From: a virus
Virus record (IMG/VR): IMGVR_UViG_3300046167_000815
Span: 1-64,000 of that record
Length of the DNA stretch: 64,000 bases
Reading direction: 5' to 3' (one strand)
A program made the position numbers and the translations under genes. The notes beneath the pieces were generated by a model. That model was not told where the DNA came from, did no database searches, and saw nothing but the letters and a program-made list of their open reading frames with translations. This document shows positions 11,220 through 53,060 of the stretch, one piece after another; the first letter of the stretch is position 1; each line of letters begins with the position of its first letter.

Positions 11220-11837
11220 ATGGCTCTTGTACCTAAAATCAATATCTGTATTCAAAGTAAATGTGATAAAATTGATGTCTACGAAGAGACAGGCCCTTAT
11301 AGTTTAACTAACAACCTTGAAGGTTGGAAATCTTCTTCAGCACTTCCTGGAAATATAGACACTTCAGAAATAACTACTGCTGATCTTAAAATTTACGATC
11401 ACTTACAAAATAACCTTTACACTACAATAGTTTTAAAAGACGCTGTATCAATTGATGTATATTCTGGCGTAACAGGCGCTCCTGCTCCTGGTAGCTTTTT
11501 AGCTGTAAAAAACTCTGCATGGACACAACCAGATGGAGTATATAAATTAGTATACACTATTGTTTCGGCAGCAGGATCGTTTACTAATGAAACTCAATAT
11601 TCTTTACTAATTTGTAATATTAAAAATTGCTTAAACGGACTTAAAGCAAAAGCAGTTACAGAATGTAGTACTGAAAAATTATCTGATATAAAAGATAATA
11701 TAAACCAATTAGAAGTATTAATTTACGGAATAGAATCAGCTTTTTCCTGTAACGACATGACTACTGCTATAAATCTTATTGCTAATGCTAAAACCATTTG
11801 TGATAATTTATGCGACTGTGGTTGTTCAGGATGTTAA
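11220..11837 (+). CDS. Tail hub/fibre-attachment structural protein with Cys-rich C-terminus
   Basis: PDGVYKLVY motif; ends CDNLCDCGCSGC; sits before the fibre genes. Confidence 0.55.
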   Translation: MALVPKINICIQSKCDKIDVYEETGPYSLTNNLEGWKSSSALPGNIDTSEITTADLKIYDHLQNNLYTTIVLKDAVSIDVYSGVTGAPAPGSFLAVKNSAWTQPDGVYKLVYTIVSAAGSFTNETQYSLLICNIKNCLNGLKAKAVTECSTEKLSDIKDNINQLEVLIYGIESAFSCNDMTTAINLIANAKTICDNLCDCGCSGC

Positions 11838-34431: not shown

Positions 34432-37400
34432 ATGGAAGAAGAAGAGTACTTAGATGATTCTAAAAAAGTAGAAGTTAAAGGTGTAGAAACTGCTCCTATT
34501 GCAGAAGAGGTTATAAAACCTGTTGAAGATATTGTAGTAGATATAGAAGAGCCTAAAAAAACTAAACCTAAAGCTACTAGTACTAAAGATACTACCGAAC
34601 CTATTGTTGATACTACTTCTAAAATAGAAGAAGAGGTACAAACAAAAGATATTTTTGACGGCCTAAGAAAAAAACCTTTTCCTGCAGCTATGGAGTTTTC
34701 TACTCCTAAAACACAACAAGAAGCTTTTTCTAGACAATTAGGATCAAGAGCTGCCGCACCTACTACTTCTACTATAAAAGGATTTACAGGAATAATAGAT
34801 TATGATGCTTTACAAGAAGTATATGCTCCAGTAGATTTAGCTGTTGGAATTCCTGACCCACAAGAACGTGAAAGTTTTATAGCCAGTAATGGCAGTAAAA
34901 TGGTAAAACTTTTTAATGAAAATGATTTTGGAGTAAAGTTTGAATCTGATCTAGCAGACTTAGCAAAATATAAAGAAAAACAATATCCATTAGCAGTTAA
35001 AAAGTTTATAGACGACCTAGATGCAAATCAAGGATGGATGGCAGAGTCAATGCTAACTCTTACTAAATTTATAGGTAAAATAGCAGTAGGTGTACCTGCT
35101 ACTATGTTAGCTTCAGTATATGGAGCAGGGTCTGCATTAGTTAATTGGGATTCCCGTAAGTTTTACGACAATGCTGTAATGGACGCTGCAGAACTTTTAG
35201 ACCAGTCTGTAGATAAATATACTGCTATATATGGAGGATCAGATGTTTTTGATTTTGAAATAAACCCAGATACAGGAATATACGAATTTAAACAAAAAGA
35301 TTTTTTAGCCAGAATGGCCTCTGATCCTTTAAAATCTATTAATGCCGACGTAGTTCCTGCTGCAGCTTTTATTGCAGATATGGTTATTTCTGAAAGTGCT
35401 TTTGGAGCATTAACTGCCGCTACAGGAGGTTTAGCTACAGGAGGACTTGCAGTAAATACCGCTAGGTTAGCAAATAAAGCAAAACAATTAAGTGGTTGGG
35501 CTACAAGAACAGGACAATATTCTAAAGCTAATCGCATACTAAGAGGGATAGACAAAGTAGACGATGTTAAAGCTGCTGCAGATATAGCAGAAAAAACACA
35601 AAGATATAGATCTGCTTTTGGAACAATAGGATCTATGTATCGTTCTTCTGCTTACGAATCTGCTTTAATAGCTAGAGACACAGATAAACATACATTAGAA
35701 CTATTAATTTCTCAGCATAAAGAACGTGAAGGTACAGAACCTACAAAATTAGATTTAATACGTTATAAAGAGTTAGCTAAAAGTGCAGGAGAACAAGCTT
35801 ACGGTCTTAATGCAATATTAGTAGGTGGTAGTAACTTAATACAATTTCCTAGACTACTAACAAAAAACTATAAAGTAGCGTCTTCTAGAAAAGGAGTATT
35901 TGATTCTTTAAAGCTAGGAGGAACTCAGTTTAAAAACGGAAAGCATATAGCAAATGTAGATGCTAAAAAATATTTAAAAACTTTAGGTTATACTAAAGCC
36001 GCTATTAAAGGAGGTATAACAGAAGGATTTGAAGAACTTTCTCAAGGTGCACTAGAAGAAGGATTAGTAGATTATTTTGCATCTAAGTACAGCGAAGACT
36101 CTAATAGAAATGCTTTAGAATTAATAAATGCAGTAACAAATAAAGCCTCCACATACTTAAATACTGTTGAAGGACGAGATAGTGTTACTATTGGAGCAAT
36201 GATGGGTATGCTAGGAATTAGAGTTCCTTTTGTTAAAAAAAGTGATTCTAAGTTGGGGTTCTCTCTTACTACAAAAGGTTTTGGTGGAGCTCGGCAAGAA
36301 ATCCAAGAAACTAGAAAAAAAATAAAGGAAGCTAGATCTAATGCAGAACTTTTAAATTCTGATTTAAATTTTAATCCTGTATTAAGCACTACTTTTGAAA
36401 ATTCTATGCGGCATATTCAGAGCCAAAAAAATATGGATGCTGCAGCTAATAATGGAGATACTTATAGATATAAAAATTCAGAATTTGATTCTTTATTTAG
36501 TTTAGTACACACAAGAACTAAAAACGGATTAGAAGATACTATAGCACAAGAATTAGACGGTGCTTTAGAAATGCCTATTGAAAAGTTTAACGAAACTTAT
36601 GCTACTAAAGGAGTAGAAAATTATACAGAAGAAACTAGGGCCCAAGCTGTAGAGTCTGCTAAAAATACTGCCGCTAAAATGGTAGAGTCTATAAAAAGTG
36701 TAGAAGCTTTATTAGCGAATAAAAAACCAGATCTTTTAACAAGAGCTGCAGAAGAAGCCTGGTTAGCAATAACTGGCAAAGAAGCAAAAACTACTTTAGA
36801 TCTTTCACAAGTAGAACAAGGTATTAAAGACCAAATGGTTTATTTACATGCTGCAGTAGAAAATACTTCAAAACGTGAAGCAGAGCTTTTAGAACAAATA
36901 AGAGAAAAAACTGGTCACAGTTTTCCTTTGTCTACATTAGATAGATTATTAACACAAGTTTCTGGAATAAGAATAGAGGACGGCAAACTTACATTTAGTA
37001 ATAGAGCACAACAAGTAAAAGAAGAAGTACTTAAAGAATATGAAAATCTTTTAGATTCTTATAAAAAGGAAGACCCTGTTAATTATAACATGAATGTAGC
37101 AGAAGTGTCTGATTTACTAGATGATGTTTTAAAATTAAAAATTAGAAGAGGGGAAGCTTCTAGAATGTACCGTGAGCTTTTTACAGAAAAAGGATCTAAA
37201 GCATTTGCTGATTTTGCAGTAGCTTTATCTATTGCTGCAGATAAAAACAGAAATAAGATAGCAAAAGAAGATATTATTGAAAAGGAAGTGCAAGAAAGTA
37301 GAAATGCAACTCTTTCTAGACAACAAAAAAATGAACTTTCTGTTTTTGGAAATACTGATATTGTAGATGCTAAAATAAATTCTGATACAGTAAACGGTAT

Positions 37401-39462
37401 AAAAGAAATACAAGCAAGAGAAGAAGACCCTACTAATTCTGACGAAGATTTAGTAGACGGTATGCTAAAAACTTTAGATACTTATCCTGGTTTACTTACA
37501 TTAATAAAAGAAAGATTAGAAGATAAAGGAGTCCCTACTGAGGGCATTACTGTTGCTCAAGAAATTCAACTAAGAGATTCTGACGGAACTATGTTAAGTA
37601 ATTTCTTTAAGGAAATAGCTATTTTAAAGAAAGAAGTAAAAGCCATGGAAGAAGCCATGGGAGATACTTTTAAAGCAGACTCGGCAGATCAATTAGGACA
37701 AGTACAATCTAAAGAAGGAGTTCCTGTTTTAGATAAAGATGTAATAGAAGATGATGTTTCAGAAGCTCTTTCTAAGGGAAAACAAGTTACTGATAAGATA
37801 ACTATTATAAACACTTTTGATAAAAAAATAGAAGCAGGAAAAACTGTAAAAGGAGAGGACGGAAAAGCTGTTAAACATTCTGTAAATAAACAGTACTATC
37901 CTTTAGATGCTAATAAAGTTAATGATCCTGATTTTTTAAATAATCTAGAACTTACTTCAGAAAAACGTAATTTTACTTTTAGAGTACAAAAAGACAACCC
38001 TTATAACGATACTGCCAGTGTAGAAAACATGGCTATTGAAGTTGTTTATATAGATCCAGTAACACAAGAAGAAACATTTATTTCTAGATTACCTGCTTAT
38101 AAAAAAGGAATGCCTAAACAATTGTTAGAGCTTAGAAAAGAGGTAGTAAAAAGATCAGAAGTTACAGAAGATGTTAGTGAAGACAACGTCAAAAGAATTC
38201 AAGAAATAAAAGCTAGAAAAAAAGAAATTAAAGAAGAGCTTAAAAAAGAACCTAAAACTCCTGCTTTAGAACCTATTATTTCTACAAATGAACTTGCTCT
38301 AGAACAAGAAAAAACTGCTCTTGAAGAAGAACAAAAACTTGATAGTCCTAATGAAAAAATTATAGCAGGGCATAAAACTCGTATTAAAGAATTAGAAAAA
38401 ATAATTAAAGAGTCTAAACCAACACCACAAACTAGTAAGGTTGAAGCTAATAAAAATATTTTAAATTCAAAGTACTTACAAGAATTTGGAATTAAATGGG
38501 AAGATAAACCTTTTCCTGGTGATATTATAGAGTACAATGGTTCTTATTATAAAGTTGATTATTCAGAAAATCAGGAGCTAACAGGGAATGAAATATTAAG
38601 TCTTGCAGAAGATGGTTTAATTGAATATACAGGAGTAGCTGAAGTTTACAAAAATGAAACCTTTGACTTATTACCTTGGAATATTAAAAAAAATAAAGAT
38701 GACGTTAATGAAAATCATCCAACGGGTCCTTTGTTTTCTGTTCCTTTAGAAATACTTGTTGATAGAGCTAAGTTTACAAAAATAAAAAAAGGAGAAGAAA
38801 GCACTTCTATAGATACTTTTTATGAAGAAGCTACTATAGTAGAACCAACACAACCAACTAGTGAAGTTGAATTACCTATAGGTACAGAAGTAAGAGTTGA
38901 AAATGAAGAAGGTACATGGTTTATTTCAAAATATGTAGATGTAACCTATTTAGGAACAGAAAAAATTGATAAAGCAGCGATAGTAACTAAAAACTTAGGA
39001 GATAATACTGAGATGTTAGAGGTCGTGTTAAAAGATTATAAAGTAACTCCTGCTACTCAACCAATTGCTGAAGTAACAGAAGAGACAAATCAGATAAGAT
39101 TAGAGTTTGAAGAATTTACTGATAATGCTACAGTTAAAGTTGTAAATAACAAAAAAGAATTAGCAGAAGAGCTAAACTCCCTTACAAAAGAACTTAAAGA
39201 ATTAATGGGAGATATATCTCCTCAAATAAATTTAAAAGAAGAAAGTGTTTTTGAATACATTTCTGATCTAACACTTATAGAAGACACTAAATTAAAAAAT
39301 AGCAAAGAAACAGAATTAAAAAAGAATTTTGGAGAGGATAATGTTGAAAGAGCAAATGCAATTAATGCAAACTTTGATACTATTATAGAAGAAATTAATA
39401 AAAGCGGAATTAATATCTTCTTTGATCCTAAAACAAATAAGCATCAAAATGGTTGTGATTAA
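34432..39462 (+). CDS. Giant ejection protein with putative membrane-inserting segments (1676 aa)
   Basis: Gly/Ala-rich hydrophobic stretches, TEGFEELSQ motif, long coiled coils; immediately precedes the virion RNAP. Confidence 0.7.
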   Translation: MEEEEYLDDSKKVEVKGVETAPIAEEVIKPVEDIVVDIEEPKKTKPKATSTKDTTEPIVDTTSKIEEEVQTKDIFDGLRKKPFPAAMEFSTPKTQQEAFSRQLGSRAAAPTTSTIKGFTGIIDYDALQEVYAPVDLAVGIPDPQERESFIASNGSKMVKLFNENDFGVKFESDLADLAKYKEKQYPLAVKKFIDDLDANQGWMAESMLTLTKFIGKIAVGVPATMLASVYGAGSALVNWDSRKFYDNAVMDAAELLDQSVDKYTAIYGGSDVFDFEINPDTGIYEFKQKDFLARMASDPLKSINADVVPAAAFIADMVISESAFGALTAATGGLATGGLAVNTARLANKAKQLSGWATRTGQYSKANRILRGIDKVDDVKAAADIAEKTQRYRSAFGTIGSMYRSSAYESALIARDTDKHTLELLISQHKEREGTEPTKLDLIRYKELAKSAGEQAYGLNAILVGGSNLIQFPRLLTKNYKVASSRKGVFDSLKLGGTQFKNGKHIANVDAKKYLKTLGYTKAAIKGGITEGFEELSQGALEEGLVDYFASKYSEDSNRNALELINAVTNKASTYLNTVEGRDSVTIGAMMGMLGIRVPFVKKSDSKLGFSLTTKGFGGARQEIQETRKKIKEARSNAELLNSDLNFNPVLSTTFENSMRHIQSQKNMDAAANNGDTYRYKNSEFDSLFSLVHTRTKNGLEDTIAQELDGALEMPIEKFNETYATKGVENYTEETRAQAVESAKNTAAKMVESIKSVEALLANKKPDLLTRAAEEAWLAITGKEAKTTLDLSQVEQGIKDQMVYLHAAVENTSKREAELLEQIREKTGHSFPLSTLDRLLTQVSGIRIEDGKLTFSNRAQQVKEEVLKEYENLLDSYKKEDPVNYNMNVAEVSDLLDDVLKLKIRRGEASRMYRELFTEKGSKAFADFAVALSIAADKNRNKIAKEDIIEKEVQESRNATLSRQQKNELSVFGNTDIVDAKINSDTVNGIKEIQAREEDPTNSDEDLVDGMLKTLDTYPGLLTLIKERLEDKGVPTEGITVAQEIQLRDSDGTMLSNFFKEIAILKKEVKAMEEAMGDTFKADSADQLGQVQSKEGVPVLDKDVIEDDVSEALSKGKQVTDKITIINTFDKKIEAGKTVKGEDGKAVKHSVNKQYYPLDANKVNDPDFLNNLELTSEKRNFTFRVQKDNPYNDTASVENMAIEVVYIDPVTQEETFISRLPAYKKGMPKQLLELRKEVVKRSEVTEDVSEDNVKRIQEIKARKKEIKEELKKEPKTPALEPIISTNELALEQEKTALEEEQKLDSPNEKIIAGHKTRIKELEKIIKESKPTPQTSKVEANKNILNSKYLQEFGIKWEDKPFPGDIIEYNGSYYKVDYSENQELTGNEILSLAEDGLIEYTGVAEVYKNETFDLLPWNIKKNKDDVNENHPTGPLFSVPLEILVDRAKFTKIKKGEESTSIDTFYEEATIVEPTQPTSEVELPIGTEVRVENEEGTWFISKYVDVTYLGTEKIDKAAIVTKNLGDNTEMLEVVLKDYKVTPATQPIAEVTEETNQIRLEFEEFTDNATVKVVNNKKELAEELNSLTKELKELMGDISPQINLKEESVFEYISDLTLIEDTKLKNSKETELKKNFGEDNVERANAINANFDTIIEEINKSGINIFFDPKTNKHQNGCD

Positions 39463-39466
39463 TTCG

Positions 39467-39474
39467 TATATTTG
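39467..39474 (+). promoter_or_regulatory. -7 box TATATTTG before the virion RNAP gene
   Basis: Match to TAnnTTTG in the intergenic gap, about 20 nt before ATG 39494. Confidence 0.55.
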
Positions 39475-39493
39475 CTAGGATAAATCGTTTATT

Positions 39494-42400
39494 ATGGCTT
39501 GTAGATATTTTGTTGGTGGTTACTCACTAACCGAAGCACAATTTAAAAAAGTGCTTAATGATGGTCTTCTAGATCAATTACTAGTTAAACAAGGTATTGA
39601 AATACCAGGGTTTAATATTAAAGAGGAGTTTATAGAAAGTACTCTTGAAAGTGCTAAACAAGGTCCTGTAGAATTAAGAGTAGTATCTAAAATAAACAGT
39701 AAGAAGCGAATAAACAATCAATTAGAAAAAGTAAGCTACACAGAAGGAGACGTTATAGGCGGGACTAATAGAAGAAGTGCTGCACGTAAATTAACTACTG
39801 TTATAAAAGAAGCTAACGATCAAATTAAAAAAGAAAATAAAAGGTTAAATAAAAAAAGAAAACCAATAGACCTCATACTGGTAACTTCTGTTGGAGGTAA
39901 ACTACAATACGGAGAAAATATTTCTAAAAAAGTAGTACAAGAAATAGAAGACAGTCCTTATGTAAATCTAGAAGATGGTTTTATATATATGCTGGTTCCT
40001 AGTTCTTACGGTTTATATCCAATAAGATTAGAGTCCCGTTTCTTAGGAGAAACAAATGTAGGTAGCCAAGTAAAAGAAAACGTAAAAAAATTATTTACTG
40101 AAACAGACAACAAAGTTTTTGACAATATTGCAAAAAATATAAGTAGGTTTTTATATAAAACAACAATAAAAAAGACTCCTGAAGGAGTTAATATAACTAC
40201 TACTAAAGCAGATAAAGAACAAGTATCAAAGACTTTTGAAACTGCCGAAGAACTAATTACTTTTATTTTAGGAGACCGAGCAGGTAAAAAACTAAACAAA
40301 GATAAAGACGGCAACCTTAGTACTAATAAAGGTTTATTGGCTCATGTAAACAGTTTAAAAATAAACAATAATGTTAAAGACCCTAATTCTTTATCTAATG
40401 ATTTTTATGCTAACAATGAATTTATAACTACAGATGTCTATACTGAAGGAGGTAACTTTTTTAATAGCAGTAGTTTTGTTGTAGAAGCATTTAATCCTAC
40501 AACCCAAACAACAAAAGTATTAGGAGAGATATTAAGCAGCTCTATACCTGTTAAAGAAGAAAGTGAGGCTAGCTCTAAAATAGTTAAACCTATTGTAAAA
40601 GAAGAAACTAAAGAAGACGAACTTCCAATTAATAATAAAACAATAGAAGAAGTACAAGAACTTCAATCTATTTATATACCTATAGAAAACTCTAATTTAC
40701 AATATAGAGTTTACGTAAGAGCTAAAGAAAATACTTTAGAAATGTATGAAGTAGAAAAAGGAAGTTTAGTAGCTGTTCCTAATTCTAATGCAAAAAAATG
40801 GAAAGTATCTTCTAAGGCAAATTCTAAAGAAACTAGTATTGCTCGTAAAGAAGCAAAGCCTAAGTTTGACGAACTTAAAAAACAGTTTGGTACAAAAGAT
40901 ACTACTACTCCAGAAGGAGGTATATACCAAGATCCTAAAACTGGAGAAGATGTAGGAACAGGTTTGTTTGATAATCCTATTGTTGAAGAAACAGAATCTA
41001 CTCCTGAGACAGAAACAAACATATCAGGAATATTTGATTACGGAGAAGAAGGAGATGTAGGGGAAGATTTAGATATAAAACCACGTACTCGTACTGTAGA
41101 TAATAAAGAAAACGCTGTACAATGGGATAAAGAAAAAGAACTTAAATGGTTAATAGATAAACTAGGCAGAAAAGTTCTAGATGGAAAAGTATCTTTATTT
41201 AATTCTGTAGAAGACTTAGAATCTTATTTGCCTAAAGAAACTTACGAAATGCTATTAGAAGCACGTAAAAACGGAAAGTTTCTTAACGGTTTGTTTACTA
41301 AAGCAGGAATGTACATATCAAACAATGCTTTTGATGGAACAGGTTTTCACGAAGCATTTCACGTAGTATTTAATCTAGGGCTTAACTTAGAACAAAGAAT
41401 TAGTTTATTAAATGAAGCAGTAGAAAAATACTCTGACGAAATCTCACCAGAAGCTACTTTAATAAAAATAGAAGAAGTACTTGCAGATAAGTTTATGGAG
41501 TACGTACAAGCAGAAGGAGAAGTAAAAGGTCTTGTAGGAAAAATAGGCAAATGGTTTAAAGCTATGTTTAGAGGTTTTAAATTATTTTTTAATAAAAACT
41601 CTGTAGTTTCTATATCAGATTTGTTTAGTGATATTCAATTAGGTGTTTATAAAAACAAAATTACTTTTGAAAATACGGACTTAACTAAAATACATCCTGA
41701 AAATATTAAGCTGCGTGAAACAGAAAATACTAATAAAAGTAATAACGATCCTATACCAGAGTTAGATCCTAGATTAAAAAAAGATGCTTTTCAATATATG
41801 GAAAACAGACTTTTTCAAGAACTAGATAAAATAAGAGAAGAAAACGCTGATTTTAAAAATTTATCAGATTCTGAATTAATTAATGAAATATCTAAACAAG
41901 GAGGTATAAAACGTATTTACGGGGTGCTTCTTTATAGAATGTCCCTGGACGCTAAGGCTAGTGCAAACGCAGGTAAAGATATTTCTAATTTATTAGAAAT
42001 ATGGAATGCGTTTACAAATAACAATAAAGCAATAGAAAAAACAATAATTGCTGGAAAAAGAATGCCTATTTTTAAACTAGGCCTTACTCCTTTAGCTAAA
42101 GAGTTTAATCGTTCTTTACGTAATAGAGGTATTAATATTAATTTAGATTCAATAGAAGACTTAAAATATACTTTTACAGAAGAAGAAGAAAATTCTTTTG
42201 CTAAAGATGTAGAGAATAGCACTGCAGAAGAGCGTTGGCAACAAGCTTATATAGAAATAAATCCACAAGAAACTTTATCTCAACTTACTAGAAGAAGACT
42301 AAGTACTATTCCAAAAATGATTATAGTAGACGGAGAAGAAGTGAGAGCTACTAATAGATTAGGAATTCCTATTAACTATTCTGAAAAAGAAGTATTTGCT

Positions 42401-45400
42401 TATTTAGCCCATAATATTACTGATTCTTATAGTCCTTCTAAAATGGTAAATAGACTAAAAGAATTGTCTGACAAAAAACCTTTTATAGAAGAGATTTTAA
42501 ATATGATACAAAAGTATCCTAATTTTAAAAATTCTTTGTACACTACTTTGGCTTCTAAAACTTTTCAAAAGTTTTTAATGGTTTTAGAAGTAGATGGAAA
42601 TTACAGAACTTTTTATTCTAACAGAAAATCTATAGATAATCTTATTACAGAAACTATGATTAACGGTTTTGTAGTAGATGAGAATCCTCTTTTTGATAAA
42701 CACGATAGTGAAAGTGAACTAAAAGGACAAATAGATTTTGAAACTCCTATTAAGAAAAAAGTATCAGAACAAATTGCTAGATTAAATAGTCTAACAGAGC
42801 GTAGTAAGGTTACTACTACTAAAGAAGAAATAACTGATTTTATTAGTGACTTTGCAAAATTTTTAAAAGACAATCATTTAAGTGTAAGTGAAGATCAGTT
42901 ATTAGAAATATGGAATCCTGATACAGAAAATACTAAATCTAAATGGAATAATATTGTAAAATTACTTAGTAGTACTGGTAAAATATTTAAAGAACTTGAG
43001 CAAGGTAGAAATCCTTTTTTACAAATGCGAGTGTCGGACGACAGTGTATTTAAAAATGTATTAAAAGAATTTGTATTTAGAGCAAAATCAGGAATGGAAA
43101 AAGACCTAAGTATTGCTTTTGTAAATGGAAATAAAAAAGCAGTATACGCAGTTCAATATTCTAATTACTTAAATAAACTAATTTCTAAATTTAAAAATCC
43201 TAAAGATTTTAAAGAATACAAAGCAGAAATAGCAAACGATCCTTTGCTTAGTAGTATGCCAATGATTACAGATCTTTTAACCGAAGAAGGAGAGGCTTCT
43301 CAGTTAATGGATAATTTAGAAACAGTTATTTTTGATTCTTTAGCAAGAAGCGGAAAAAATACAAATGTAGACTATTCTGATTTGTCAGATATTGAAATAG
43401 AATCTATGGCAATGGCGGCCTTTTTTAAACAAGGTAACAAAAGCAACTATGGTTATTACAAACTTCCTATTCCTGCAGATAACTCTGTATTGCCTCTAAT
43501 TCAATATAAAAAATATGACTTTAAAGAAGTCGTAGATAGATTTGTTCAAGTAGCCAATGCAGAAAGAAAAAGAATAAATTTCTTTAAAAATTTACCAGAA
43601 GACTCTTCTCTTCTTTTAATAGAAAACTTTAAGAAGAACGCAGGTAAATATCATATATTAAACTTTTTAAATGGCAAAGTATCTGAAAATACTAGTGTTG
43701 ATGATATTAGAATTATAATAGAAGACCATTTACTAACAGAGTTTTTAGAGTTACAAAAAGAAAAATATAAAGATGCGGGCATAATAAAAGAATACGAAAA
43801 GGGCCCTAATGGTAAAATTACTTTTACTGATGGAGTAATTAGTAAAAGCCAAGAAAAAAATTCTTCAGAGTTCTTTAAAAGTTATTTGTTTAATTCATAT
43901 TTAATGAATACTCAAATGACTACTATTTTTGCAGGGGACCCTGCTTTTTATACAGGCACAGGAGATTATCAAAAAAGATACAAACAAATAGTATCTCCTG
44001 GAACTTTTACTAATTCTGAAATTATATATGATAAGTATTCTGGTTTAGTATTCAATGATGAAGTAGCTCCTACAGAATCTTACGTTGTAGATAATATTAT
44101 AGATTTAGTAAGAGCTTCTGATCTGCCTGCAGAAAACAAAAAAGAATTAATAGCTAGATGGGAATCAACTAGAAGTACTACTTCTGATAAAGGCCATAAT
44201 AATCTTACTGATGCGGCTACTTTTATATCTTTAGATAGAGCTAAAAATATTTTAGTATCTCTTGATAGATATACTCCAGCACATAAAAAAGCATTTGAAA
44301 GAATAAAAAAAGGAATTGAAAAACCAGAAGACTCTGCTTTGTTTAGTGTCTCAAAACCTTTTATGTTTAGTAAGATGAATATAGAAGGAGTAGAAGTTCC
44401 TATTCAAATTAAAAACTCAGAAGTACTTTTAACTAAAGCACTTGCATATAAAAAAGATGCAGACGGAAACTTTATGCGTCCTAAACTAGTAGCTGCTTAC
44501 GATTTATTAAACAATCCTAAACCAGATGGTCCGCAAATAGATTTTATTGCTTTTGAATCTGCTGTAAAAGTAGGAGCTATAGGAAGTAAACTAGACGAAG
44601 AAGGAAACGTTACATATAATGAATTAGTAGAAGATGATGAAGGCAAACTAATATTAAACGGACCTCCTGCTATTGTTACTTTAGACCATGCAGACTGGAG
44701 ACTTCAACAAGAAGTACCGCCTAAATACGAAGATGCTTCTGGTAACTTTGGTAGCCAATTACGTAATCTAATTATAAGTGATATGTCAATGGACGGCATA
44801 TACAAAATAAATAAAAAAGATTATACAGGAAGAGAAGTAGCAAGAATGTATCAAGATCTTATAGTAGAAAATCTACAAGAGTCTTACGAAGATGTAGAAG
44901 AAATGTTCCTGGACGAAGACGGGGAAATAGACTATAAAAAAATTACTACTCATTTAAGAGCAGAAATTACAAGAAGAAACTTAGGAGAAGAATATTTTAA
45001 AGCAATAGAGCTTGTAGATAATGTTCGTAAAAATAAAAAAACACCTACTTTACCTCTTTGGCATCCTTTAGTTTCTTATAAAGTAGAAAGCCTTCTAAAC
45101 TCTTTCTTTAAAAATAATGTTACCAAACAAAAAATTAAAGGAGGAGCAATGGTCAATGCTACTTCTTACGGAGTATCTGAAGAACTAGAGTTCTACATAG
45201 ATAAAAACGGTAATTATTTAATGGAAGCTTTGCTGCCTTGGTGGACTAAAAGATTCTTTCCTAAAAATAAAGATGGCGAGATAGATTTAAAAACACTGCC
45301 AAAAGAATTAACAGCGCTTTTAGGTTACCGTATTCCTACTGAAGATAAATACTCTATGTTTAATATTAAAGTAGTAGGGTTTACGGATTCAGCAGCAGGA

Positions 45401-48400
45401 GGTACTATTATTCTTCCTCAAGAAGCTACTACTCAAGCAGGACTCGATTTTGATATTGATAAACTTTCTATGATTATTCCTGAGTACAGAATAACAAAAG
45501 AAGGTAAAATAGAATACAAAAAATATTTAAATGAAAATTCTTCTGCTGAAGAAATTGTGGACGCTATTTTTGACAGTAATAGTTCTTACGAATCTTTTGT
45601 TAATAAGTATGTTCCAAAAAGCAGTCAAAAAAGAATACTAAAGTTAAAAGAAGAAGCTGATCAAGATATTTTTAATTCTGTTTTATCAAGAAACAACTGG
45701 AAAAAAGATGTAGGTTTTACAGAGATTGTAACAGAAATAAAAGATTTAACAGAAGAAAGTAAAAAAGAAACAGACCCTGTAAAAAAAGCCGCTCTTAAAA
45801 AACAAATTAATTCTTTACGTAATAAAGTATACGAAGAAAAAGATTTATTTGATGCAGGTGTTAATACTGCGCATGAAAGATACAAGACTCTTAAAAAAGA
45901 TATAGCTGGTTTTGTAGAAACGATTTCTAAAGACGAATACGTAGACTTTAATACTAAAGCAACACGTAATAATCAATTATTACAAATAATGATTGGTATT
46001 ATGGAAAATAAAGAAACGGCTCTTTCTATTATTGACTCTGGTAACTTTGATAAGTTAATAGAATTAGGAACTAGTACTAGAATACTACAACTACCAAAAG
46101 ATTCTAATCTTAAAAAAGAAGGTATAGATATTTTAAAAGATTTTAAATCTGGAAAAATAGATGTTTTACAATATAGAGAACTACTTAAAGATTTTTCTAA
46201 AAAATTAGATGATAAGGATTTTAATATAAATTATCCTTCTACACAATTGACTTTGTTTAGACGTAATATGACAGGTAAAAAGCTAATTGGTATTTTTGCA
46301 AATCATAATTCTAATCATGCTAAAGCACAATACACAAATCTTGCTTTGAATTCAAGTGTTAAATTTGATGGAATAGAATACAACAGTTTAAATAATGTAA
46401 AAAATTCTGAAGGAGAAAGAATATCTAAATCATTAGCAATTAAATTAGCTGCTGTTGTAGACAACGCTCAAGAACCTGTATCTGCTTATTTAAATATGAA
46501 CACTTACACGGCCAATGTAATCGCATACTTATCTAGATTAGGAGTTAAAGAAGATACTATTTTTGCTTTTGTTAATCAACCTTCAATTGTAGAACTTACA
46601 AAAGAGCACTTTAACGAAAAAGGATCTGCTGCAACAGAAAAAAATAGAGTAGACAAACACATTGCACAGCTAAAAGGAGATTTAGGCATCAATAATATTA
46701 GTTTAGATTCTATAGAAATGGAAGAAGGGAATCTAAATTTAAAAGAATTGCAAGATGCTTTAGATAATAATAACTCTAAAGAAACATTAATTACTCAGTA
46801 TAAAGCGTTAGTAGCTTTTAAAGATCATTACAATATAGCAGAAGAATTAAGCCAAATAACGCAAGCTTCTAAAGTAGATACTCAACCTGTAGGTCCTTCT
46901 AATGGAGAAAACTATGTAATGATTAATAAACAACAAAGAGTATTAAATAGAAGTAACTCTATGATTACAGGTAAAGAAGAATTATTTTTTACAGAATCAG
47001 AGCAATTAATTAATCCTGCTTTTAATAAATATGGATGGTTAAAACCTTTAGGTATTTTAAATAAAGTATTTCCTTCTATAGGAAAAATTTCTACAGAAAC
47101 AGGTAGTATACAATACTCTATGCTAGGAAAAATAAAAAATTTCTTTTCTGATTTAAAAACAGATTTTAATTTAACAGCTTCGGAAGCACGCCAGGTAGAC
47201 AGTCTGTTTATGTCTTACATAGGGTCTAAACTTCCTTTCTTTAATTACAAAGATGCTACAAGAGTTTTAAATGAAGTTCCTGATACATTGCGTAAGTACA
47301 AAGAAGAAAACCCAGATTCTATTTACATGCCGCTTTTAGAAGCTTTGTATACTAAAGATGCTACAAGAACTGTTCCTGTACGTAGAATAGAATACTACAA
47401 TACAGGTAAGAAGAGTTTAGATCATGAAGAAGCAAGAGCAGCTTGGAAACAAATGCTAACTGCAGAAAATGCTAAAGACAGAAAACTAGCGTTAGATTTA
47501 GTTAAATATACTTTTTTCTCTAATGGATATAGTTTTAGTTCTTATTCATTCTTTAATATGATTCCTGTAGAGTTTTGGAAAGACTCTTTTGCAAAAGAAG
47601 ATATTAATAAAGGAGTAGGACTTTTAGACGAAAACAATAATAGTTTTAATGATATAGCTGAATTAGTTTTTGAAGATTTAAAAAACGAACCTGCGGTAGG
47701 AGTTGACGGTTACATAACACAATCAGGCGCTGTATATAATTTTATTAAACAGTTTATACAAAATACTGCAGAAAAATCTATGGTAGTACCTTCTTTAAAT
47801 TTAAAAGAAGATACTCCAAGAGGATTTACTCCTAAAAAAGGAGTTTTAAAATTAGCACCTGACGAAGTATTTGTTTTTGGAACTACACAAGAAGGAGCTC
47901 ATAATATAGATGCTGCAGGGTTTGCTTTTAGCGGAAACGCTACAACAAATAAATCTTTGTATAAAAAAGGAGACACAGGTAAATGGACTCAATACGGTAT
48001 AACGGGTCAAATTACACTTGGTACAGAAGGACAAGGATTTGGTATAAGAATGCAAAAAGCTACTTTTAAAGATGGGTCTTTAGAAAAAATAGAAGGTCCT
48101 AAACAATTAGAAGAAGCTGAAAGTAGAAAGCTTATAACATCTATGAAATCTGATTTAAGAAAATTAATTAAAGCAGCTAACGAAAATAATAATAAAACTT
48201 TTATTGTAGGAAATTTAGATAATTCTACTAATGATACAGGAAGAACAAGTTTTAAAATTATTAAACAAGCTTTAGAAGAAGTTAACAAAGAAGCTATGTT
48301 TCCTGAAAATGTAATTTTTCCTGAAAAATACGATCCAAGGATAAATAACAATAGAAAAATTGTAAAAGTTGATAATACTCAAAGTTTAATTATTAGAAAA

Positions 48401-48964
48401 GCAGCTCATCAAAACTATAAAAATAATGATGGAGTTTTTCCTTCTTTCTTTAAAGTAACTAAAAATAAAGTTACTAGTGTTTACGAAATAAATAAAGAAA
48501 CTTTAGATAAGGATTACTTAGAATACAATAAGATTCCTACATTAGGAACTAACAATTTTATTGTAGAATTTAATTACAATAATCCTATAAATGAGTCTAT
48601 AGTTCCTAAAATTATTAAGAAGAGCAGCGGTTTAACTTTGACCAACAAAAAAGAAATAGAGGAAAAGTATCAAGAAGCTCCTCCAATAGATCCTACAAAC
48701 TCTTCTTTGTTTACTATTTCTACAAAAGAAGTACTGGAAGATTTAAAAGACGACGATTACCCAGACATAGATGTTTTACAATTTTCTGCGCCTACAATAA
48801 AATCAAACATAGAAACACCAAATATTGGGCCCAAGGAAGCTCCTTACTCAGAATATAGTACTTTAGCAAAAAGTAAAAAGCAAGTTCCTATGCCAGAAAG
48901 TATTTGGGAAAAAGCAAGCGCTTTAGAAAAAGCAAGTATTATGATACAACTTAAAGAATGTTAA
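39494..48964 (+). CDS. Virion-packaged RNA polymerase polyprotein (crAss/phi14:2 gp66-like) with zincin-like and Macro-like accessory domains
   Basis: Catalytic AGLDFDIDKL (DFDID at 45446-45460), GYRIPTED, FESAVKVG, KRYKQIVSPG, TDAATFI, AAVVDNA; HEAFH zincin motif at 41348-41362. Confidence 0.92.
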   Translation: MACRYFVGGYSLTEAQFKKVLNDGLLDQLLVKQGIEIPGFNIKEEFIESTLESAKQGPVELRVVSKINSKKRINNQLEKVSYTEGDVIGGTNRRSAARKLTTVIKEANDQIKKENKRLNKKRKPIDLILVTSVGGKLQYGENISKKVVQEIEDSPYVNLEDGFIYMLVPSSYGLYPIRLESRFLGETNVGSQVKENVKKLFTETDNKVFDNIAKNISRFLYKTTIKKTPEGVNITTTKADKEQVSKTFETAEELITFILGDRAGKKLNKDKDGNLSTNKGLLAHVNSLKINNNVKDPNSLSNDFYANNEFITTDVYTEGGNFFNSSSFVVEAFNPTTQTTKVLGEILSSSIPVKEESEASSKIVKPIVKEETKEDELPINNKTIEEVQELQSIYIPIENSNLQYRVYVRAKENTLEMYEVEKGSLVAVPNSNAKKWKVSSKANSKETSIARKEAKPKFDELKKQFGTKDTTTPEGGIYQDPKTGEDVGTGLFDNPIVEETESTPETETNISGIFDYGEEGDVGEDLDIKPRTRTVDNKENAVQWDKEKELKWLIDKLGRKVLDGKVSLFNSVEDLESYLPKETYEMLLEARKNGKFLNGLFTKAGMYISNNAFDGTGFHEAFHVVFNLGLNLEQRISLLNEAVEKYSDEISPEATLIKIEEVLADKFMEYVQAEGEVKGLVGKIGKWFKAMFRGFKLFFNKNSVVSISDLFSDIQLGVYKNKITFENTDLTKIHPENIKLRETENTNKSNNDPIPELDPRLKKDAFQYMENRLFQELDKIREENADFKNLSDSELINEISKQGGIKRIYGVLLYRMSLDAKASANAGKDISNLLEIWNAFTNNNKAIEKTIIAGKRMPIFKLGLTPLAKEFNRSLRNRGININLDSIEDLKYTFTEEEENSFAKDVENSTAEERWQQAYIEINPQETLSQLTRRRLSTIPKMIIVDGEEVRATNRLGIPINYSEKEVFAYLAHNITDSYSPSKMVNRLKELSDKKPFIEEILNMIQKYPNFKNSLYTTLASKTFQKFLMVLEVDGNYRTFYSNRKSIDNLITETMINGFVVDENPLFDKHDSESELKGQIDFETPIKKKVSEQIARLNSLTERSKVTTTKEEITDFISDFAKFLKDNHLSVSEDQLLEIWNPDTENTKSKWNNIVKLLSSTGKIFKELEQGRNPFLQMRVSDDSVFKNVLKEFVFRAKSGMEKDLSIAFVNGNKKAVYAVQYSNYLNKLISKFKNPKDFKEYKAEIANDPLLSSMPMITDLLTEEGEASQLMDNLETVIFDSLARSGKNTNVDYSDLSDIEIESMAMAAFFKQGNKSNYGYYKLPIPADNSVLPLIQYKKYDFKEVVDRFVQVANAERKRINFFKNLPEDSSLLLIENFKKNAGKYHILNFLNGKVSENTSVDDIRIIIEDHLLTEFLELQKEKYKDAGIIKEYEKGPNGKITFTDGVISKSQEKNSSEFFKSYLFNSYLMNTQMTTIFAGDPAFYTGTGDYQKRYKQIVSPGTFTNSEIIYDKYSGLVFNDEVAPTESYVVDNIIDLVRASDLPAENKKELIARWESTRSTTSDKGHNNLTDAATFISLDRAKNILVSLDRYTPAHKKAFERIKKGIEKPEDSALFSVSKPFMFSKMNIEGVEVPIQIKNSEVLLTKALAYKKDADGNFMRPKLVAAYDLLNNPKPDGPQIDFIAFESAVKVGAIGSKLDEEGNVTYNELVEDDEGKLILNGPPAIVTLDHADWRLQQEVPPKYEDASGNFGSQLRNLIISDMSMDGIYKINKKDYTGREVARMYQDLIVENLQESYEDVEEMFLDEDGEIDYKKITTHLRAEITRRNLGEEYFKAIELVDNVRKNKKTPTLPLWHPLVSYKVESLLNSFFKNNVTKQKIKGGAMVNATSYGVSEELEFYIDKNGNYLMEALLPWWTKRFFPKNKDGEIDLKTLPKELTALLGYRIPTEDKYSMFNIKVVGFTDSAAGGTIILPQEATTQAGLDFDIDKLSMIIPEYRITKEGKIEYKKYLNENSSAEEIVDAIFDSNSSYESFVNKYVPKSSQKRILKLKEEADQDIFNSVLSRNNWKKDVGFTEIVTEIKDLTEESKKETDPVKKAALKKQINSLRNKVYEEKDLFDAGVNTAHERYKTLKKDIAGFVETISKDEYVDFNTKATRNNQLLQIMIGIMENKETALSIIDSGNFDKLIELGTSTRILQLPKDSNLKKEGIDILKDFKSGKIDVLQYRELLKDFSKKLDDKDFNINYPSTQLTLFRRNMTGKKLIGIFANHNSNHAKAQYTNLALNSSVKFDGIEYNSLNNVKNSEGERISKSLAIKLAAVVDNAQEPVSAYLNMNTYTANVIAYLSRLGVKEDTIFAFVNQPSIVELTKEHFNEKGSAATEKNRVDKHIAQLKGDLGINNISLDSIEMEEGNLNLKELQDALDNNNSKETLITQYKALVAFKDHYNIAEELSQITQASKVDTQPVGPSNGENYVMINKQQRVLNRSNSMITGKEELFFTESEQLINPAFNKYGWLKPLGILNKVFPSIGKISTETGSIQYSMLGKIKNFFSDLKTDFNLTASEARQVDSLFMSYIGSKLPFFNYKDATRVLNEVPDTLRKYKEENPDSIYMPLLEALYTKDATRTVPVRRIEYYNTGKKSLDHEEARAAWKQMLTAENAKDRKLALDLVKYTFFSNGYSFSSYSFFNMIPVEFWKDSFAKEDINKGVGLLDENNNSFNDIAELVFEDLKNEPAVGVDGYITQSGAVYNFIKQFIQNTAEKSMVVPSLNLKEDTPRGFTPKKGVLKLAPDEVFVFGTTQEGAHNIDAAGFAFSGNATTNKSLYKKGDTGKWTQYGITGQITLGTEGQGFGIRMQKATFKDGSLEKIEGPKQLEEAESRKLITSMKSDLRKLIKAANENNNKTFIVGNLDNSTNDTGRTSFKIIKQALEEVNKEAMFPENVIFPEKYDPRINNNRKIVKVDNTQSLIIRKAAHQNYKNNDGVFPSFFKVTKNKVTSVYEINKETLDKDYLEYNKIPTLGTNNFIVEFNYNNPINESIVPKIIKKSSGLTLTNKKEIEEKYQEAPPIDPTNSSLFTISTKEVLEDLKDDDYPDIDVLQFSAPTIKSNIETPNIGPKEAPYSEYSTLAKSKKQVPMPESIWEKASALEKASIMIQLKEC

Positions 48965-48965
48965 T

Positions 48966-51900
48966 ATGAATTGTATAAATATAAATCACCCAGAATATAA
49001 GTCTTTATTAAACAGTACAAAAGAACATCCGCATGTTTTAAACTACAAAATAAGTTTATGGATGGACAAAAACGGAACAGATAGTTTTCCTACTGCTAAT
49101 GAAGTTTTGTCTATTCCTTTTGGCCAAGGGGTATTTTATAATATTAATCCTATAAAACAATTAGGTATTAAATACAATATGAACCAAGCAGGTTTTATGC
49201 CTGCAAATGTAGACTTAGCACAGGTTCAAAGAGACGCTAGAAAATTAAATTTAACGGTCCATAGAGCTGCTTCTCGTATGTGGTTCTTTAAAGACTCTAG
49301 TAAAAGATTCATCAATCCCTTCAAATACAGACAGTTAGAAACAAGTACTCCTCTCAATCCCAACCAAGATCTAACTGACAGACTTTTAAAGTGGGCTAAT
49401 ACTCACGGTATTGCCGTAACTACTTTAGAAGAAATGATGAATAGGGCAACAGACTCAGACTCTTTAAAAGGGTCTGTAGCTGTTGCTGACTTACTTAATA
49501 GAATAATAGCTATAGATCCACAAAAAGAAGGATACGATACATTAGCGGAAGAAGTAGCACACTTTGCTACTAGCATATTAAAAGACGATGTTTCTGTAAA
49601 GAAAGCTATGGAGAAAATAGTAGATACAGAAATGTATAAAGAGGTAAAAGAGGTTTACGCTGAACTATATAATAATGAAGAAGACTTTAGAAAAGAAGCC
49701 GTAGATAAACTACTTACTCAAGTTATTCTAGATAAGTTTCAAGAAACAAAAGAAACAAAAGGAGTGCTGCCTTTTATTAAAGGAATCTTTAGCAAGTTTA
49801 AAAAATGGGTTTCTAAATTTAGAAAGTCAGATGCTGCAGAAGAAATTAAAAATGATTTATATCCTCTTGCACAATCTATTCTTAACAATGAATATTTAGG
49901 AACTGCTAATACTGTAGACGCAACAAGTAACACTGTATTCTACCAAAAAGGATTAGTGTATACTCCAGAATCTGAAACAGAATTACTAGAATCTTTACCT
50001 GAATCAATAGAAAAAGTTAAAGCTAAATTTGTTATAGCGGCTACTAATAAACTTAATGAACGATTAGAACAACTTAGAAGAAATAGCGCTAAGGCAAAAA
50101 AAGTAAAAAGTTTACAAAAAGAAATAGATACTTTAAAAGAACAAATAGAAAAAAATGAACTTACTGTAAGTGCTTTAGGAGTAATAGAATTAGCCAGAAA
50201 AGAGCTTGTTCCTATAAATAAAATGCTAGATACTTTTATTGAAAAAAATGCTACTAATGGTAAGGACTTAGAAATGATAGAAAAATTTTCTGAAATGTAT
50301 CAGAATTTATTTACAGATTTTCAAGAAGGAATGTCTGTATTAAATTTTTCTAAAGAAGAAAATCAAAATCTTCTTAATATGCTACAAGAAGTTCGTTCCG
50401 AAATATTACAAATGGATTCTAGAAATAGAGCTCTTATAAAAGAAAACGCACTTACTGTATTAGAAGAAGGCAATGTAGGCCCTGACGGTCAAAAAATAGA
50501 TCCTGATTTTAATGCAGAAACCGCTTTTAATTTTACTAAAGAAGATGCTTCTGCCTGGAGACTACAAGTAGGTAATTACAAACTTTCTAATTCTCCTATT
50601 ATAAGAGCAGTCCATAAAATATTATTTGATGCTACTCAAGCTGTAAAAAGATTTGCAATTTCAAAAGGTAACGTTTTACTAAGGGCACAACTAGAAATGG
50701 AAAATGCTGGAGTAAAAGTAGAAGATTTAATAGAAAAAGATGCAAATGGAAAGTATACTCAGTACCTTATACGTAAAGAAGACTGGGCAGGATACTATGC
50801 TGAAAGATCTAAAATGCAAGAAAAACTTGCAAAAGAATTAGGTTACGATAGCTATGCAGATCTTGATACTAGCCAGCTTTCTGAAAAAGATTTAAAAACT
50901 TATAAAAGAGTTACTAAAGCATTTTTTAGAGAAAATTCTCTTTTAAGTTATGATTCTGAAGGAACAATTATAGGCAGAAAACCTAAAACTCTTAATCCTA
51001 AGTTTGCAGAATTAATGAAAAATCCTGCAGTTAAAAATTATTATGATTTACTAATAGATACTAAAACAGAAGCTCTTTCTAAATTGCCTACTCAATATAG
51101 AACTTCTGCTTCTATATATTTATTGCCAGGAATAAGAGCTCAGTTTTTAGAAAAACTTACTGATAACAACCAGTCTTTTTTAACTAATATGAGAGAGACT
51201 GTAAAAGAAGCTTTCTTTATTGATGAAGATGATACTCAGTTTGGGGAAATATCTGCACTAAATAATAGAATGGTCCCTATATATTTTAACCAACGTTTTG
51301 ATAATCCTGCAAATTTATCTAGAGATTTAACTAGAAGTTATACTGTGTATTCTGAAATGGCAGAAAACTTTAAATCTATGAACACCATAGCAGGTGATGT
51401 ATATACTATTTCTAGTGCTTTAAGTAGAAAAAAATACCAAAAAGGAAAACAACAAGTAGAAGGTATCGTTTCTAGAGATTTTAAAATACTGCAAAACATG
51501 TTAGATCAAAATGTTTACGGTATAGTAAAGAAAGATGTTAGTGTAACAGTAAAAGATACTCCTCTTACTAGAAAATTACATCTTGCTAATAAGTCTTTTT
51601 CTTTTACTAAGTTGGCGCAAAAAGTTTCTAAGTATATTTCTTTAAATAACTTGGCCTTAAATCCTTTTACTTCTACTGCAGGTTATTTAAAAGGGTCTAT
51701 TGATTCTCTTGTAGAAGATCAAATAGGATTATATACTACATTAGAATCTAAAAACTGGGCAAGAGGAGAGTATGCTAAAAATATACTACATGTCTTACAA
51801 GAAGTTCCTAAAAAAAGACAGACAAATAAAATGCATCTTTTATTACAACGTAACGGAGTTGTAGAGCTTAGTAAAATGCTTAGAAATACTAATAAGAATA

Positions 51901-53060
51901 AACTACTTTCTGATGTTACTAGTAGAGACCTTATGTTTTTAAATTATCGTACTGCTGACTACGCTATTAAAGGTAGAGTAGCATTGTCTATTTACGATAA
52001 CATAAGATTAGTAGACGGTAATTTTATAAACAAAAAGAACTTTTTAGAAAAGTCTGAAAAAGAAGGCCTATCTAAAAAAGAAGCTAATAAAAAATGGAAA
52101 GAGTCTAGAGACAAAAGTTTGTACAATGCTTATGAAGTAGTAGACGGCATTCTGCAAGTAAAACCAGAGTTTAAGCAATACGTTACTGATGGGGTAGAAA
52201 ATGCGGCTGTGGGACAAGTTAATCATGTAGCTAACACAGTAGACGGTACGCTATCAGAAAGTGATAAAGGAGCACTAGCTCGTACAGTATATGGAGATTT
52301 TGTACTTATGCACCGTGGATGGTTTATAAATATGATAGATTCTAGATTTACTAAGAAAAAAGTAAACTTTATTACTGGAGAAGAAGAGATGGGTATATAC
52401 CCTGCTGCAGGAGATTTCATATATCAAGATATAATTAAAGGTAAGAATCTTACTCCTTGGGATATTTATTCTGCTTATAAAAATATAGCTAGTCCTGCTA
52501 AAAAACGAGGAGTTAAAAAAGCAACTTTAGATCTTATTTATTTACAAGTTGTAGCTCTCATAAGTGCTATGGTAAATGTAGCAGCAGACGACGATGATGA
52601 AAATATGATGCTACAATTAGCAGCATACCAAATGAATAGAGTGCTCTTAGAACAAGCTGCAGGACAACCTTTGTTAAACACAGGGGAATTACTTCAAATT
52701 ATAGATGAACCTGTTGTGGGTGTAAGAACTGTAAAAGATTTAGTAGATATTAAAGAAATATTTAATTTTAAACCTTACCAAAGCGGAATGTATAAAGGAT
52801 GGACTCACGCAGGTAAGTGGGCCATTAAAAAAATACCTGGATACAAAAATATTTACGAAAGTCAGTTTCCTGATCTAAAAAATAATTTCTTAAAAAATCA
52901 AATTATAGATTCTTATACTTATGATTTATTAAAAGAAAAACAAGACGATAGTGAATTTACTTTATTAGAAAGACTAGCTCTTATATTTAAAGACCAACAG
53001 CCAGATAACGAAAGTACTGTGGTCCAATATATAGAAGCACTAGAAGAAGACAACTACTAA
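48966..53060 (+). CDS. Giant ejection protein downstream of vRNAP (1364 aa)
   Basis: MNCININHPEYK.L start, degenerate zincin LAEEVAHF...KEAVDKLL, helical C-terminal domain; last gene of the virion module. Confidence 0.7.
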   Translation: MNCININHPEYKSLLNSTKEHPHVLNYKISLWMDKNGTDSFPTANEVLSIPFGQGVFYNINPIKQLGIKYNMNQAGFMPANVDLAQVQRDARKLNLTVHRAASRMWFFKDSSKRFINPFKYRQLETSTPLNPNQDLTDRLLKWANTHGIAVTTLEEMMNRATDSDSLKGSVAVADLLNRIIAIDPQKEGYDTLAEEVAHFATSILKDDVSVKKAMEKIVDTEMYKEVKEVYAELYNNEEDFRKEAVDKLLTQVILDKFQETKETKGVLPFIKGIFSKFKKWVSKFRKSDAAEEIKNDLYPLAQSILNNEYLGTANTVDATSNTVFYQKGLVYTPESETELLESLPESIEKVKAKFVIAATNKLNERLEQLRRNSAKAKKVKSLQKEIDTLKEQIEKNELTVSALGVIELARKELVPINKMLDTFIEKNATNGKDLEMIEKFSEMYQNLFTDFQEGMSVLNFSKEENQNLLNMLQEVRSEILQMDSRNRALIKENALTVLEEGNVGPDGQKIDPDFNAETAFNFTKEDASAWRLQVGNYKLSNSPIIRAVHKILFDATQAVKRFAISKGNVLLRAQLEMENAGVKVEDLIEKDANGKYTQYLIRKEDWAGYYAERSKMQEKLAKELGYDSYADLDTSQLSEKDLKTYKRVTKAFFRENSLLSYDSEGTIIGRKPKTLNPKFAELMKNPAVKNYYDLLIDTKTEALSKLPTQYRTSASIYLLPGIRAQFLEKLTDNNQSFLTNMRETVKEAFFIDEDDTQFGEISALNNRMVPIYFNQRFDNPANLSRDLTRSYTVYSEMAENFKSMNTIAGDVYTISSALSRKKYQKGKQQVEGIVSRDFKILQNMLDQNVYGIVKKDVSVTVKDTPLTRKLHLANKSFSFTKLAQKVSKYISLNNLALNPFTSTAGYLKGSIDSLVEDQIGLYTTLESKNWARGEYAKNILHVLQEVPKKRQTNKMHLLLQRNGVVELSKMLRNTNKNKLLSDVTSRDLMFLNYRTADYAIKGRVALSIYDNIRLVDGNFINKKNFLEKSEKEGLSKKEANKKWKESRDKSLYNAYEVVDGILQVKPEFKQYVTDGVENAAVGQVNHVANTVDGTLSESDKGALARTVYGDFVLMHRGWFINMIDSRFTKKKVNFITGEEEMGIYPAAGDFIYQDIIKGKNLTPWDIYSAYKNIASPAKKRGVKKATLDLIYLQVVALISAMVNVAADDDDENMMLQLAAYQMNRVLLEQAAGQPLLNTGELLQIIDEPVVGVRTVKDLVDIKEIFNFKPYQSGMYKGWTHAGKWAIKKIPGYKNIYESQFPDLKNNFLKNQIIDSYTYDLLKEKQDDSEFTLLERLALIFKDQQPDNESTVVQYIEALEEDNY

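Follow-up and report, generated by a model that had tools for sequence, protein, structure and literature searches.

Why would three giant phage proteins, otherwise almost devoid of cysteine, keep a cysteine at precisely those ends at which they face one another? This question is raised by IMG/VR virus record IMGVR_UViG_3300046167_000815, of which positions 1 to 64,000 (a stretch of 64,000 nucleotides, nt, referred to here as the window) were analyzed. Between positions 34,432 and 53,060 the window carries three adjacent genes encoding giant proteins, designated here A, B and C:

34432..39462, plus strand: protein A (1676 amino acids, aa; 187 kDa), the counterpart of crAss001 gp47 and phi14:2 gp67
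39494..48964, plus strand: protein B, the virion RNA polymerase (3156 aa; 358 kDa), with a match to 6VR4 and a DFDID motif
48887..48961, plus strand: conserved C-terminal segment of protein B (approx. 25 residues) with a cysteine at its end, distinguished in the alignment of close relatives
48966..53060, plus strand: protein C (1364 aa; 156 kDa), the counterpart of crAss001 gp49 and phi14:2 gp65

The sole cysteine of protein A is its penultimate residue, Cys1675 (..NGCD; codon 39454-39456). Protein B contains two, Cys3 (MAC..; codon 39500-39502) and the last residue, Cys3156 (..KEC; codon 48959-48961), and protein C contains one, Cys3 (MNC..; codon 48972-48974), located within a conserved N-terminal motif, CINxxHPEY. 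All four are encoded by TGT, and the outer ends of the series (the N-terminus of A and the C-terminus of C) carry none. An earlier manual inspection, made without database searches (the sequence-only reading), had described this distribution as one cysteine near the C-terminus of A, two at the tips of B and one at the N-terminus of C, i.e., four in about 6200 residues with none at the outer ends; a script count agreed with it exactly (4 of 6196 residues, all at facing termini), and no internal cysteine had been missed in A, B or C. The same reading took the upstream cargo proteins to be cysteine-free, which is correct for the open reading frames (ORFs) of 150 and 992 aa, but not for the 1563-aa protein, whose single cysteine is its very last residue (codon 30925-30927). 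Under uniform placement, the probability that all five cysteines of these 8901 residues would fall within 24 positions counted as terminal is approx. 1e-13. The mean cysteine content of the other window ORFs of at least 150 aa is 0.5%.

The genes preceding the A-B-C series are as follows:

21690-24380 and 24611-26239, plus strand: muzzle protein, present as two ORFs (Pfam crAss_MUZ)
26239..30930, plus strand: upstream cargo protein of 1563 aa; Pfam domains Glucosaminidase and crAss_CARG1
30956-31408, plus strand: ORF of 150 aa, cysteine-free (script count), preceding the 992-aa ORF
31437..34415, plus strand: cargo-block protein of 992 aa, cysteine-free (script count), between the 1563-aa protein and protein A

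Homology identifies this block as the virion RNA polymerase cargo module of the Crassvirales. Protein B matches PDB entry 6VR4 (gp66 of phage phi14:2; E-value 1.2e-21), and the DFDID motif found at its residues 1985-1989 (45446-45460) is invariant, as DFDID/DFDxD, in a 12-sequence alignment including crAss001, phi14:2 and p-crAssphage LMMB. The polymerase block is located downstream of the crassvirus muzzle (crAss_MUZ, 21690-26239) and crAss_CARG1 genes. Protein C is matched by phrog_37651, and window C and crAss001 gp49 match the same C proteins (phmmer). The homology of protein A is transitive: window A and crAss001 gp47 both match the N-terminal part of a fused protein of crassvirus lineage L019 (phmmer), and an iterated hidden Markov model built from window A gathered only 19 sequences. 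Neither Pfam nor PHROGs gave domains in A and B, and no PDB sequence match was obtained for A and C. Phages crAss001 (gp47/gp50/gp49) and phi14:2 (gp67/gp66/gp65) resemble the window in their homologous polymerase with DFDxD, their homologous flanking giants, the position of the block after the muzzle and cargo genes, and the terminal cysteine pattern, whereas the window polymerase is larger (3156 vs. 2180-2412 aa) and shares with theirs a core identity of only 25-31%. The phi14:2 and crAss001 counterparts are present in virions, as determined by mass spectrometry, and by homology with them the window proteins A, B and C are probably also packed in the virion and injected.

In the sequences compared, the terminal cysteine pattern holds across the order Crassvirales. 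The comparison covered 13 IMG/VR relatives, cultured phages and 80 further crassvirus loci from a profile search, grouped into 48 clusters (lineages) at <80% polymerase-core identity, among them phi14:2, crAss001 and p-crAssphage. In the 13 closest IMG/VR relatives (34-42% polymerase-core identity) the pattern is the same residue for residue: the upstream protein ends with Cys or Cys-x, the polymerase starts with MAC and ends with Cys or Cys-x, and the downstream protein starts with M-x(1-2)-C-I-N. Within the last 120 residues of B in close relatives, the cysteine is the sole invariant column. In the clade of the window, the conserved C-terminal segment of B of approx. 25 residues comes after a variable linker, and protein C starts with a conserved domain of approx. 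45 residues.

The cultured phages carry the same arrangement. In phi14:2, g067 has Cys1797 as its last residue, g066 has Cys3 and Cys2179 (of 2180 residues), and g065 has Cys3. In crAss001, the corresponding residues are Cys2339 of gp47 (2341 residues), Cys5 and Cys2404 of gp50 (2412 residues), and Cys5 of gp49. In crAss001, transcription of the gp47 gene runs opposite to that of gp50 and gp49, with the cysteine pair retained; the pattern is therefore not a nucleotide by-product of the gene junction. Across the 48 clusters, every separately encoded polymerase has a cysteine at residues 3-8 (34/34) and, wherever the next protein is separate, the polymerase has one at most 10 residues from its C-terminus (46/46). 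All A-like partners (27/27) have a C-terminal cysteine, the downstream protein C has an N-terminal cysteine in all clusters except two (L069 and L093), and the outer ends of the series never have one. The L069 case was found to be a start-codon miscall. In L093, protein C is without the first 101 residues of its counterpart in the sister lineage L095, which has Cys3, and it was read as truncated. Among control ORFs of at least 250 aa from the same loci, 13 of 159 have an N-terminal and 20 of 159 a C-terminal cysteine. The cysteine content of the control ORFs is 1.33%, compared with 0.134% for the cargo proteins overall and 0.074% when their terminal cysteines are left out.

Across the loci compared, facing cysteines are gained and lost jointly as genes split and fuse. 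Nine lineages have the polymerase core downstream of residue 2200 within a giant protein of 3524-6057 aa. These giants have no N-terminal cysteine and 0-2 internal ones, and the protein preceding them has no C-terminal cysteine; six of them share homology with separate A-like proteins in their N-terminal part. Two fusions of the polymerase with C (L094 and p-crAssphage LMMB) keep Cys3 and have no C-terminal cysteine. The C-terminal part of the L094 fusion is homologous to crAss001 gp49. In LMMB, a 1957-aa protein with Cys1956 is followed by a 4070-aa polymerase fusion, which is taken from the GenBank annotation, phmmer having given no C homology there.

Gene splits show the complementary behavior. 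In L001, protein A is cut into pieces of 1260 and 288 aa that are collinear with window A and flank a ferritin-like gene; the 1260-aa piece ends with ..LCK-stop, whereas the 288-aa piece starts with MISC.. and ends with RCD. In L023, an ADP-ribosyltransferase (ART) module stands alone as a 345-aa protein, having Cys3 and a cysteine as the last residue, between two GIY-YIG genes; in L004 and L059 the same module forms an internal part of protein C and of the fused giant, respectively:

L023:7625-9949: ART-PolyVal and GNAT-like module with cysteines at both tips, flanked by GIY-YIG homing-endonuclease genes

Apparent splits of the polymerase gene that gain no cysteines were also encountered:

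L068:11614-12513: polymerase-gene interruption, endonuclease-bearing (HNH or LAGLIDADG)
L082:11476-12396: polymerase-gene interruption, endonuclease-bearing (HNH or LAGLIDADG)
L086:8834-10160: polymerase-gene interruption, endonuclease-bearing (HNH or LAGLIDADG)

These three were rejected as cysteine-less splits and read as introns, since the exon ends rejoin to uninterrupted crAss001 sequence; no cysteine pair is found at the junctions. The interruptions occupy highly conserved sites of gut crassvirus polymerases, one of them inside DFDxD, and Rfam gave no intron family for them at gathering score. A further candidate, a split of protein C in L019, turned out to be a frameshift.

Since fusions lack the pair, splits possess it and pseudo-splits do without it, the facing cysteines appear to be partners, and to be so only when the polypeptides are separate. 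The sequence-only reading had suggested that the C-terminal cysteine of one protein pairs with the N-terminal cysteine of the next. Joint gain and loss with fission and fusion over the 48 lineages strongly supports the pairing; the disulfide or shared metal site, the threading through the tail and the release by reduction that this reading also proposed are hypotheses for the crassviruses. The further idea that such pairs rejoin the pieces of a possible polyprotein agrees with the way in which they track fission and fusion. Its proposed survey of polymerase clusters across the Crassvirales showed that real splits gain a pair and that paired terminal cysteines are conserved in homologues. The notion of a chain in gene order has to be relaxed: it describes the window, but it does not apply strictly, since crAss001 gp47 and its partner are encoded on different strands, and since partners may be separated by ferritin-like or homing-endonuclease genes.

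What kind of link do these pairs form? We consider it probable that head-to-tail inter-protein disulfides join the three proteins into a linear A-S-S-B-S-S-C thread of approx. 700 kDa (187 + 358 + 156). In such a thread, the disulfide would run from the C-terminal tip cysteine of a protein to the cysteine at residues 3-8 of its successor. A short candidate helix at the C-terminus would probably dock on the N-terminal domain of the partner before the bond forms, and oxidation would follow after the particle has left the reducing cytoplasm. Linkage at the tips would keep the thread unbranched, so that it could pass, partly unfolded, through the narrow channel of the portal and tail, and would also fix the order and the 1:1:1 ratio of A, B and C. 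Internal cysteines may have been purged against branches, loops and periplasmic oxidation, and the host cytoplasm would reduce the links, thus freeing the polymerase. In evolutionary terms, a disulfide would replace the peptide bond where the gene of a giant polyprotein was cut, often beside an inserted ferritin-like or homing-endonuclease gene. The generalization to the whole order we hold to be evenly balanced between true and false: the cargo would be one covalent, unbranched disulfide thread, in which cuts made by selfish or moron genes swap a peptide bond for a disulfide and fusion reverses the exchange, and reduction in the host would both release and activate the polymerase.

The disulfide reading is supported by the bond solved in cyanopodophage A4, by the sole cysteines of its two partners in the A-4L genome, and by the disulfides of crAss001 virions. 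Cryo-electron microscopy of A4 revealed a disulfide between Cys1715 of gp27 and Cys5 of gp26, with the C-terminal helix of gp27 placed in a cleft of gp26 (PMC12002296, PNAS 2025). In the genome of this phage (Anabaena phage A-4L), Cys1715 is the sole cysteine of gp27 (1717 aa) and Cys5 the sole cysteine of gp26 (1114 aa). As in the window, gp27 and gp26 are giant ejection proteins encoded by adjacent genes and otherwise free of cysteine, and the A4-type arrangement, a sole cysteine at the C-terminal tip followed by a sole cysteine near residue 5 of the next protein, is found in the window as well. A4 differs in having one link vs. a chain of two or more and in the absence of an RNA polymerase from the linked set, and the A4 paper gives one bond in one phage and no fission/fusion rule (PMC12002296). 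No sequence similarity of A4 gp26 and gp27 to crassvirus proteins was detected with phmmer. An AlphaFold 2 model of residues 1-340 of protein C (predicted local distance difference test score, pLDDT, of 83.6) gave only generic helical matches in Foldseek and VIA-align searches (Z under 6), with no link to A4 gp26. In crAss001 virions, many inter-subunit disulfides occur in the tail and portal vertex (PMC10172136).

Several observations weigh against a disulfide chain. The cytoplasm in which the particles assemble is reducing, and many of the hosts are strict anaerobes, which poses the problem of when and where the cysteines would be oxidized. The chain model offers no partner for the fifth terminal cysteine, at the end of the 1563-aa cargo protein. 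The purge of internal cysteines is not absolute, some gut lineages having 10-20 of them in B (e.g., L091). In three of the nine giants (L029, L070 and L087) no A homology was detected, and these were classed as fusions only on account of protein size and of where the polymerase core lies. The papers on crAss001 and phi14:2 (PMC10172136; bioRxiv 10.1101/2020.03.07.982082) make no mention of terminal cysteines or of a link among the three proteins. Modeling of terminal peptide pairs, which the sequence-only reading had proposed, was run for the C-terminal 55 aa of B with the N-terminal 70 aa of C, using custom alignments. It gave a score of 0.45 (best of three controls 0.00), with contact agreement between runs of at least 88% and partner pLDDT of at least 69. 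Of 80 solved complexes 58 reached the mark, as did 2 of 110 mismatched pairs; at scores of 0.60 or less, it was reached by only 7 of the 80 and by both of the passing mismatches. The prediction for these ends lends weak support, and it returned no contacts.

The covariation with fission and fusion would fit any pairwise thiol link, including a metal clasp, in which the facing cysteines and a neighboring His or acidic residue share Zn, Fe or Cu in a reversible, non-covalent manner. Such a site could form in a reducing, anaerobic cytoplasm, and protein C of the window's clade does start with C-x4-H (CINxxHPEY), its His being nearly invariant. Each partner, however, contributes only one cysteine, the His is missing in phi14:2 (MSCKLQT) and crAss001 (MAKKCAII), and the C-termini of B, where cysteine alone is invariant, have no conserved second ligand; with the one solved analogue, A4, being a disulfide, we regard the clasp as quite improbable. 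Non-covalent docking, with the terminal motifs acting as docking peptides and the cysteine serving for packing or another use of the thiol (e.g., to anchor the protein to the portal or capsid, or for acylation following ejection), appears unlikely. It would account for the motifs conserved beyond the cysteine in the terminal segments and for the weak support from complex prediction (0.45 vs. 0.00 in the control). What it does not account for is that cysteine is the sole invariant residue, with surrounding motifs that differ between families, and that it has been retained despite an otherwise extreme purge of cysteine. Attachment to a third party, in turn, predicts neither the joint loss of cysteines on fusion nor the cysteine-free outer ends.

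The sequence of the B/C junction, TGT TAA T ATG AAT TGT, with the second Cys codon 10 nt on and in the +1 frame, might suggest that the cysteine codons are features of the gene junction itself, serving ribosome hopping (as in T4 gene 60) or representing remnants of split inteins, so that one polypeptide would result. This explanation is extremely improbable and is already contradicted by the crAss001 strands and the intervening genes. Hopping at 48959-48974 was ruled out, since crAss001 gp47 and gp50 are encoded on opposite strands with the pair kept, and a ferritin-like gene of approx. 480 nt lies between the partners in many relatives; moreover, the matched codon is always that of Cys and never another. 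Split intein halves comprise about 100 and 35 residues, with cysteines at the splice junctions. The geometry of the termini rules them out, as only 0-9 residues follow the C-terminal cysteine and the N-terminal one is at residues 3-8, with no space for intein halves.

Two elements of the proposed disulfide chain are already known from other phages, namely cysteine avoidance in ejected proteins (PMC11445570) and one terminal disulfide between ejection proteins, that of A4 (PMC12002296). In the Schitoviridae, cysteine is suppressed in ejection proteins (N4 gp50 and DEV gp71-73), the suggested reason being passage through the periplasm (PMC11445570). Like the crassvirus cargo, this set of virion proteins is ejected, contains a giant polymerase and is strongly depleted of cysteine; it differs in having essentially no cysteine and no terminal pairs, and in a polymerase of the T7-like fold class. 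In T7 (L111, genes 14-16), neither gp15 nor gp16, the latter over its first 1135 residues, contains cysteine, and there is no facing pair; gp14 has one cysteine, at residue 2. The literature search retrieved no description of terminal cysteines in crassvirus cargo, of a chain spanning the polymerase, or of a fission/fusion rule. The statement of the sequence-only reading that no description was known consequently stands for the Crassvirales and falls for a bond of this kind as such, given the case of A4 (PMC12002296).

Several neighboring genes of the window deserve mention. No N-terminal partner was found for the C-terminal cysteine of the 1563-aa cargo protein, and this cysteine is not conserved, the upstream cargo proteins of five relatives having no terminal cysteine. 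A comparable residue, Cys860, is present in an 861-aa protein of p-crAssphage LMMB. The two muzzle ORFs, separated by a 230-nt gap, cover positions 6-719 and 949-1220 of the crAss_MUZ profile plus the C-terminal domain; in relatives the muzzle is a single ORF of 1406-1464 aa, and the arrangement in the window could have arisen through an intron, true gene splitting or a deletion. Two cysteine-rich ORFs are located among the structural genes, one at 11220-11837 (205 aa, 11 cysteines, ending with CDCGCSGC) and the other at 11850-12932 (360 aa, starting with MSNCSNCE).

A ferritin-like gene of approx. 160 aa (Pfam PF00210, also Rubrerythrin) occurs at cysteine-pair junctions in several crassvirus lineages, namely at the A/B or the B/C boundary or, in L001, between the two pieces of A:

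L001:4940-5425: ferritin-like gene
L002:5743-6225: ferritin-like gene
L003:5980-6453: ferritin-like gene
L018:5073-5555: ferritin-like gene, assigned from position and sequence resemblance only
L021:4962-5444: ferritin-like gene, assigned from position and sequence resemblance only
L025:14278-14775: ferritin-like gene
L062:8776-9264: ferritin-like gene

No such gene is present in the 79-kb record from which the window is derived. The ferritin-like gene could be a moron that cut the cargo genes, or it could be tied to redox chemistry.

No phages are more abundant in the human gut than the crassviruses. Both the crAss001 atlas (PMC10172136) and a recent N4 paper raise the question of how a protein mass of at least approx. 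700 kDa, including the polymerase that starts the infection, is delivered through so narrow a tail. For the annotation of these giant genes, the cysteine pair offers a rule by which real gene splits may be told from introns and frameshifts. The covariation of the pair with gene fission and fusion would constitute a clean natural case of a disulfide taking the place of a peptide bond. The disulfide chain, if true, would provide a concrete and testable answer concerning the order, stoichiometry and topology of ejection, and would point to a redox trigger for the release of the polymerase.

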